Part shown: piece by piece, positions 1-527 of the stretch
Layout: each line of letters opens with the position of its first letter
Numbering within the stretch: position 1 is the stretch's first letter
Source: Escherichia coli
Lineage (GTDB): Bacteria; Pseudomonadota; Gammaproteobacteria; Enterobacterales; Enterobacteriaceae
Length of the DNA stretch: 64,000 nucleotides
Assembly: GCF_050920415.1 (NCBI RefSeq)
Contig: NZ_CP169309.1
Strand: one strand, 5' to 3'
Program-made: the position numbers and the translations under genes
Notes under the pieces: model-generated
Told to the model about the DNA's origin: nothing
The model's input: the letters and a program-made list of their open reading frames with translations, nothing else
The model's database searches: none

Positions 1-197
1 GTACCTTTCCGCTGCCTGTTGCCAGCTGTTGTGCACGCGGTATCTCAAGGAGAAACGTTGTGCTTGTTGACATAACACAGTGTGCTCACGCGGGGTTAAG
101 GCGCTGACGGCACCACCCGTTTCAGCCAGGACTTAGTGCGCCGGGTAACGATGCGGCCCCCGCATAACACATTGCGTACAGTGATATTATAGAAGTT
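1..197 (-). other. tisA: tisAB mRNA 5' leader (partial; tisB ORF lies outside the window). Contains a plus-strand segment (about 62-90) nearly identical to the 5' part of IstR, i.e. the antisense target site
   Basis: Synteny next to istR/ivbL; plus-strand 62-90 'gcttgttgacataacacagtgtgctcacgcgg' matches 312-340 'ttctgtgttgacataatacagtgtgctttgcgg'; LexA box between the divergent units. Confidence 0.5.
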
Positions 198-217
198 TAC
201 TGTATAAATAAACAGTA
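198..217. promoter_or_regulatory. LexA (SOS) box tactgtataaataaacagta controlling tisAB and istR-2
   Basis: 20-bp match to CTGT-N8-ACAG LexA consensus, located between the divergent tisAB and istR units. Confidence 0.75.
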
Positions 218-257
218 ATATTTAGACAAAACGTAAACTGTGATCGATACTCAACTA

Positions 258-398
258 TGTACTAAATACGTCAAAATTCGTGCCGAAATTGCGCGTTCTG
301 CGCGGAACACGTATACTTTCTGTGTTGACATAATACAGTGTGCTTTGCGGTTACCAGCCGTGGGCGGCTGACGAAACCTCGCTCCGGCGGGGTTTTTT
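258..398 (+). ncRNA. istR: IstR-2 small RNA (longer, LexA-controlled isoform); ends approximate
   Basis: Position between LexA box and ivbL; shared rho-independent terminator at 377-398 (stem CCUCGC/GCGGGG, UCCG loop, U6). Confidence 0.55.
324..398 (+). ncRNA. istR: IstR-1 small RNA (~75 nt antisense regulator of tisB); sigma70 promoter ttgcgc (289-294), 17-bp spacer, tatact (312-317)
   Basis: Near-consensus promoter with 17-bp spacing, ~75 nt to intrinsic terminator, complementarity to tisAB leader. Confidence 0.6.
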
Positions 399-527
399 AT
401 TGCCTGCTTTTCAGTACAAAACGTGATCAACCCCTCAATTTTCCCTTGATGAAAAATTTTCCATTGTCTCCCCTGTAAACCTGTGCTTGTATAAATATTG
501 TTAAACACAAAACCAACAAGGTCCCCA

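Follow-up and report, generated by a model that had tools for sequence, protein, structure and literature searches.

The tisAB/istR toxin–antitoxin locus at the edge of a 64-kb Escherichia coli sequence

Introduction

The tisAB/istR locus is a type I toxin–antitoxin system of Escherichia coli in which LexA controls tisAB and istR-2, and the antitoxin RNA IstR-1 is expressed constitutively (PMC2826370, PMC11264685). The primary tisAB transcript is 359 nt in length (PMC2577331); its +42 and +106 forms, the S1-dependent ribosome standby, the block imposed by IstR-1, and the cleavage by RNase III have been described (PMC6690012). The tisA frame is reported to be untranslated, and the TisB protein, which depolarises the inner membrane, promotes the formation of persisters after ciprofloxacin treatment (PMC2826370). 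The dinQ/agrB, zorO/orzO, and shoB/ohsC loci are likewise listed as SOS-induced type I loci with separately encoded antisense RNAs and the same logic: the toxin is small and hydrophobic, its primary mRNA is inert until processed at the 5′ end, and a divergently or separately encoded sRNA can pair with the 5′ UTR of the toxin mRNA over a short stretch of approximately 20 nt (PMC3567139, PMC3919570). However, these loci have other toxin families and other sRNAs and share no sequence similarity with the locus considered here, and long-range standby, approximately 100 nt upstream, is best characterised for tisB.

The sequence analysed in this work, hereafter the window, is a stretch of E. coli DNA of 64 kb. 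An earlier note, made from its letters, recognised an SOS-controlled tisAB/istR module at positions 1–400. This segment is almost certainly the chromosomal type I toxin–antitoxin locus tisAB/istR of E. coli; the window edge falls within the locus, and of the toxin mRNA the leader alone lies inside the window. The coordinates of the features are given in Table 1.

Table 1. Features of the tisAB/istR locus and of neighbouring genes, in window coordinates
Feature	Position	Strand	Remarks
tisAB (tisB) mRNA leader, 5′ part	1–181	−	start ~177–184; runs leftward off the window towards tisB
tisA frame, first 73 nt	1–73	−	37 codons in full; ATG at 73–71; translation MSTSTTFLLEIPRAQQLATGSGKVRQLAVLLNHRRRV
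IstR-1 target in the tisAB leader (AGCACACUGUGUUAUGUCAACA)	65–86	−	single-stranded ribosome standby region according to PMC6690012
uxaA-complementary segment GCATCGTTACCCGGCGCACT	135–154	−	20 nt, complementary to the uxaA 3′ end; exact match to PMC2577331
tisAB promoter −10, TATAAT	186–191	−	matches the tisB hexamer in Table 1 of PMC11264685
LexA operator (SOS box) TACTGTATAAATAAACAGTA	198–217		18/20 relative to TACTG(TA)5CAGTA; both CTG/CAG arms intact
istR-2 promoter	223–251	+	−35 TAGACA 223–228; 17-nt spacer; −10 GATACT 246–251
IstR-2	259–398	+	140 nt, LexA-controlled, includes all of IstR-1; from K-12 ncRNA b4616 via alignment
istR-1 promoter	289–317	+	−35 TTGCGC 289–294; 17-nt spacer; −10 TATACT 312–317
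Antisense segment of IstR (UGUUGACAUAAUACAGUGUGCU)	323–344	+	complementary to tisAB leader 86–65
IstR-1 antitoxin RNA	326–398	+	73 nt; K-12 RefSeq annotation carried over by alignment
Terminator common to IstR-1 and IstR-2	373–396	+	hairpin, then U-run to 398
ivbL	528–626
ilvB	732–2420
Islet ORF, 160 aa	3792–4274		annotated as hypothetical
Islet ORF, 479 aa	4551–5990		annotated as hypothetical

Results

Identity of the locus and comparison with K-12

The Rfam istR family (RF01400) matched window positions 269–398 on the plus strand over the complete model (1–130 of 130) with a score of 144.7 bits (E = 6e-31; gathering score 45 bits), and istR and tRNA-Sec were the only Rfam families to exceed their thresholds anywhere in the 64 kb. 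The alignment with the K-12 istR–tisAB locus, which had been proposed as a check, covered 641 nt with approximately 98% identity at the same genomic place, and not one position differed between the LexA box and the tisB ATG, the whole leader included. The K-12 locus (tisAB/istR-1/istR-2; b4618, b4616) has the same position, divergent layout, LexA box, and 22-nt antisense pair, as well as the same istR-1 promoter, istR-2 −10 hexamer, terminator, IstR lengths, and predicted fold. The synteny emrD–ysdE–tisB / istR / ivbL–ilvBN, in which the left genes were read in the closest genome, followed the K-12 order; the annotated features of the K-12 record, IstR-2 (140 nt), IstR-1 (73 nt), tisB, ysdE, emrD, ivbL, and ilvB, stand in that same order. 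The anatomy, base-pairing potential, homology, and synteny of tisAB/istR were established for the window, and no sequence feature contradicting this reading was found.

LexA box and promoters

A LexA box was found between the divergent transcription units, where the earlier note had placed it, and it was the sole site with ≤3 mismatches to TACTG(TA)5CAGTA in 64 kb (0.01 expected by chance); the repeat search also detected it, as inverted repeat I1. The box, whose sequence is the same in K-12, overlaps with the tisAB −35 region, is 7 bp from TATAAT (191–186), and is located 5 bp in front of the istR-2 −35 hexamer. Since it is located upstream of the istR-2 −35 hexamer, off the promoter core, the repression of istR-2 is not obvious from the anatomy and is taken from the literature. 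According to the literature, the SOS control ascribed to the module holds for tisAB and istR-2 but not for IstR-1, which is constitutive.

Both nested sRNA promoters that had been predicted were located through their published hexamers (223–251 and 289–317), with one variant base in the istR-2 −35. The istR-2 promoter was the sole promoter-like site reported by the consensus promoter scan; its −10 GATACT is the published hexamer, whereas its −35 TAGACA is one base off the TGGACA of K-12 (MG1655), which is found in 94.5% of the loci. The istR-1 promoter lies within the IstR-2 transcription unit, and both its hexamers agree exactly with those listed in PMC11264685 (Table 1); its −35 TTGCGC has 3/6 consensus matches and falls below the scan threshold.

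IstR RNAs

The proposed extents of the sRNAs (258–398 for IstR-2 and 324–398 for IstR-1) came within 1–2 nt of those carried over from K-12 (259–398 and 326–398, respectively). IstR-1 was reportedly 75 nt long in its original description, i.e., 324–398. The common terminator of both sRNAs was confirmed as a hairpin at 373–396 with a U-run to 398. The predicted fold of IstR-1, the same as in K-12, consists of a single-stranded 5′ tail, a hairpin (336–370), and the terminator hairpin (373–396) with its U-tract.

Five substitutions relative to K-12 were found within IstR-2, at positions 260, 321, 361, 362, and 367. Three of these (361, 362, and 367) fall in IstR-1, in the 3′ arm of the hairpin at 336–370, where each converts a Watson–Crick pair into a G.U pair. 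The predicted fold is unchanged (−28.6 kcal/mol vs. −32.5 kcal/mol for K-12) and the antisense tail is untouched, as would be expected of a structured RNA under constraint.

The 22-nt repeat and IstR–leader pairing

The direct repeat D2 consists of two 22-nt copies, at 65–86 (TGTTGACATAACACAGTGTGCT) and 323–344 (TGTTGACATAATACAGTGTGCT), which are identical at 21/22 positions and have a spacing of 258; approximately 3e-7 such 22-mer pairs would be expected by chance in 420 nt, and 0/30 shuffles gave one. The repeat reported earlier is thus real, but its coordinates (62–90 and 312–340) were out of register, only 6/29 positions agreeing between them; bases 312–322 belong to the istR-1 −10 region and not to the 5′ end of IstR-1. 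The two copies share one DNA strand, but transcription crosses them in opposite directions, and the RNAs are therefore complementary. The sole DNA difference (C76 vs. T334) becomes a G.U wobble, so that the duplex is unbroken over 21–22 bp. The duplex of IstR 323–344 with leader 86–65 (22 bp with one G.U) had a predicted energy of −35.1 kcal/mol, and IstR-1 itself contains 19–21 nt of the antisense segment, depending on its 5′ end. The minus strand of 65–86, AGCACACTGTGTTATGTCAACA, corresponds letter for letter to the 22-nt antisense-to-istR element of Weel-Sneve et al. (PMC2577331).

The description of this arrangement as a target duplication stands for the 22-nt same-strand repeat, but no significant similarity extends past the 22-nt core. 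A longer ancestral duplication of the leader and istR was rejected, with the local alignments of the flanks falling within the shuffle range (a downstream score of 16, reached by 103/1000 shuffles, and an upstream score of 11, reached by 364/1000); for this reason, the repeat families D3 and D4 are best read as chance G+C-rich matches. The whole-molecule RNAduplex energy of IstR-1 with tisAB (−78.4 kcal/mol) was likewise set aside: shuffled IstR-1 gave −56 ± 4.4 kcal/mol with a minimum of −75.4 kcal/mol, and since the value is not distinguishable from shuffles, the core duplex is the only informative part of the pairing. The repeat core occurs a third time, as a partial copy, at 163–174 (CATAACACATTG), with 11/12 matches to 71–82 and 10/12 to 329–340.

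The tisAB leader, tisA, and tisB

The minus-strand tisAB leader was found, as predicted, to run off the window start (1–181) with no differences from the K-12 leader. Its +1 position was bounded using the −10 hexamer at 191–186, the published 359-nt length counted back from the tisB terminator, and the +42/+106 positions; the hexamer and this length would place +1 at ~177–184, +42 inside 135–154, the region into which the published processing site falls, and +106 inside 65–86. Thus, the window anatomy appears to fit the published +1/+42/+106 numbers. The tisA frame, which has no Pfam family, has its start codon within the IstR target and shares ATGA with the tisB start.

The tisB ORF was expected outside the window. 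In the closest genome, it spans window-equivalent positions −37 to −126 (minus strand), and its ATG is found 38 nt left of window position 1. It is intact, has AGGAGA in front of it and a terminator behind it, and its product MSLVDIAILILKLIVAALQLLDAVLKYLK matched the Pfam family TisB_toxin (PF13939) with 37.6 bits (cut-off 25). The IstR-1 target lies ~90–110 nt upstream of the tisB Shine–Dalgarno AGGAGA (window-equivalent −26 to −31). The presence of the toxin gene is read from this nearest relative and not from the source genome; as far as this near-identical genome shows, tisB is intact and adjacent, and the lack of a tisB ORF next to position 1, which would have spoken against the module, was not observed. 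The TisB of the closest genome carries N2S, whereas K-12 has the minority form; N2S is the E. coli consensus, present in 85% of the loci, and its toxicity has been demonstrated (PMC11264685).

Distribution among E. coli genomes and annotation

A megablast search with positions 1–720 gave a chromosomal match in 5,419 of the 5,426 complete E. coli genomes. The module itself (1–400) was present in 4358/5426 genomes (80%), with at least 80% coverage in 4,136 of the 4,358, and 212 of the 4,358 were at least 99% identical to the window allele. This frequency agrees with that of the published tis/istR survey, in which the module was full in 82%, interrupted in 3%, and absent in 15% (PMC11264685). The closest record, NZ_CP169399.1, was 100% identical over 1–720 and 99.97% identical over the first 32 kb. 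The first 32 kb contain 8 mismatches and 1 gap relative to this record, and its IS2 element is missing from the window, which is thus a very close relative of the record and not the record itself.

The RefSeq records of the closest strains have no feature under the stretch corresponding to the istR/tisAB leader (window 1–400), and NZ_CP080133.1 lists a 'hypothetical protein' under its match to this stretch. Among the records looked at, ncRNA features for istR were carried by the K-12 record only.

Other features of the window

Several other features were observed outside the tisAB/istR locus. In the region 528–709, the ivbL leader peptide MTTSVLNAKLLPTAPSAAVVVVRVVVVVGNAP has V at position 5, where the K-12 peptide has M5. 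An attenuator hairpin of ivbL is located at ~652–680; the Rfam match to Pseudomonas P6 at 652–709 (20.6 bits vs. a cut-off of 50) was rejected, the terminator-like similarity behind it being only that of the ivbL attenuator/terminator hairpin. Between ilvN and uhpA, which are adjacent in K-12, the window contains an AT-rich islet (2715–6151; 33–38% G+C vs. ~55% in the flanks), found at full length in 643/5,426 complete E. coli genomes. Its two ORFs had no Pfam or PADLOC match. The islet looks like a horizontally acquired cassette.

A type II toxin–antitoxin pair, consisting of a RelE/ParE-family toxin and a helix-turn-helix protein, is located between yicN and nepI (15044–15704, minus strand) and was identified from the annotation of a near-identical record. 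A virulence-type island (17325–33800) is situated next to tRNA-Sec (selC, 38522–38612). It contains the inverse autotransporter adhesin gene iatC (9.7 kb), with internal tandem repeats of ~291 bp at 20775–24834 (copies 80–90% identical), as well as genes for the HilA-like regulator eilA, IpaD/SipD-like and YopB/SseC-like components of a type III secretion translocon, and a CesD/SycD/LcrH chaperone. The chaperone gene is uninterrupted in the window, whereas IS2 is inserted in it in NZ_CP169399.1; feature coordinates past ~33.8 kb were shifted relative to that record to allow for IS2. The dinD gene (56270–57094, minus strand) has a LexA-like box, CTGTATTTGTATACAG, just upstream (57140–57155), and its 3′ end (56303–56318, CAACTGCTTGATGCTA) matches at 15/16 positions the tisB-ORF segment complementary to dinD mRNA (PMC2577331), compared with 16/16 in K-12.

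Discussion

The istR covariance model, the identity with K-12, the LexA box, the promoter hexamers, the 22-nt element, and the adjacent tisB all agree on tisAB/istR, the identity that the earlier note had assigned. It is an already known system and an ordinary locus.

For this near-identical locus, published K-12 work suggests the following mechanism. LexA bound at 198–217 would repress both the leftward tisAB promoter and the rightward istR-2 promoter, and the removal of LexA upon DNA damage would give rise to the tisAB mRNA of ~359 nt. The primary (+1) transcript would be translationally inert, and the loss of its first 41 nt would yield the +42 form, in which the single-stranded ribosome standby site (window 86–65) would be exposed; 30S subunits would load there via protein S1 and then shift to the structured ribosome-binding site of tisB, ~100 nt farther downstream. 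IstR-1, made constitutively from its own promoter (289–317), would pair through its 5′ tail with the standby site over 21–22 bp and block loading, and RNase III would cleave the IstR-1/tisAB duplex, leaving the inactive +106 mRNA. Because IstR-1 would block standby and RNase III would inactivate the mRNA, TisB would be made only when the SOS-induced tisAB mRNA outnumbers IstR-1; the protein (29 aa) would then depolarise the inner membrane and promote persister formation.

With tisB itself outside the window, positions 1–400 might be read as a decayed or orphan remnant, in which tisB is missing or disrupted to the left and the antitoxin and leader persist as a relic. Orz-only loci are known for zor/orz. 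Approximately 20% of the complete E. coli genomes are without a match to the module, a few have a partial one (e.g., H27, 41% coverage), and interrupted tis/istR loci make up 3% of the published survey (PMC11264685). Nevertheless, the leader and the start of tisA are unbroken up to window position 1 and show no differences from K-12, the closest genomes all have tisB immediately adjacent, and 1–400 shows neither insertion-sequence ends nor breakpoints; a remnant is therefore very unlikely. It is extremely unlikely that the main role of the sRNA is other than that of antitoxin, for example with IstR-2 or IstR-1 acting in trans with Hfq on further mRNAs, the tisAB RNA acting on uxaA or dinD, and the tisB interaction being secondary. 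Such a role would accord with the description of istR in Rfam as an Hfq-binding RNA, with the role of IstR-2 being reported as unclear (PMC2826370), and with the tisAB segments complementary to uxaA and dinD (PMC2577331), of which the uxaA segment is present at 135–154 and the dinD match at 56303–56318 is 15/16. However, published genetics and biochemistry link IstR-1 directly to tisB translation and persister levels (PMC2826370, PMC6690012), and any additional targets would come on top of the antitoxin role rather than replace it.

Within the tisAB/istR reading, there is a slim chance that the minority allele of the window tunes the system differently from K-12, an idea based on the three G.U pairs, which are predicted to weaken the IstR-1 hairpin by ~4 kcal/mol, and on the TAGACA −35 of istR-2. 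Separately, the third partial repeat copy at 163–174 may be fortuitous, with a similarly slim chance of its being a weak second IstR-complementary site.

As a discovery, the finding carries little weight, since no chromosomal type I toxin–antitoxin system of E. coli is better described than tisB/istR-1, which also serves as the textbook example of control by ribosome standby. It points to an annotation gap, istR and the tisAB leader being missing from the RefSeq records of this strain and of most others sampled. It also validates the first reading of this DNA, in which the locus was recognised from the raw sequence alone with nearly right coordinates.
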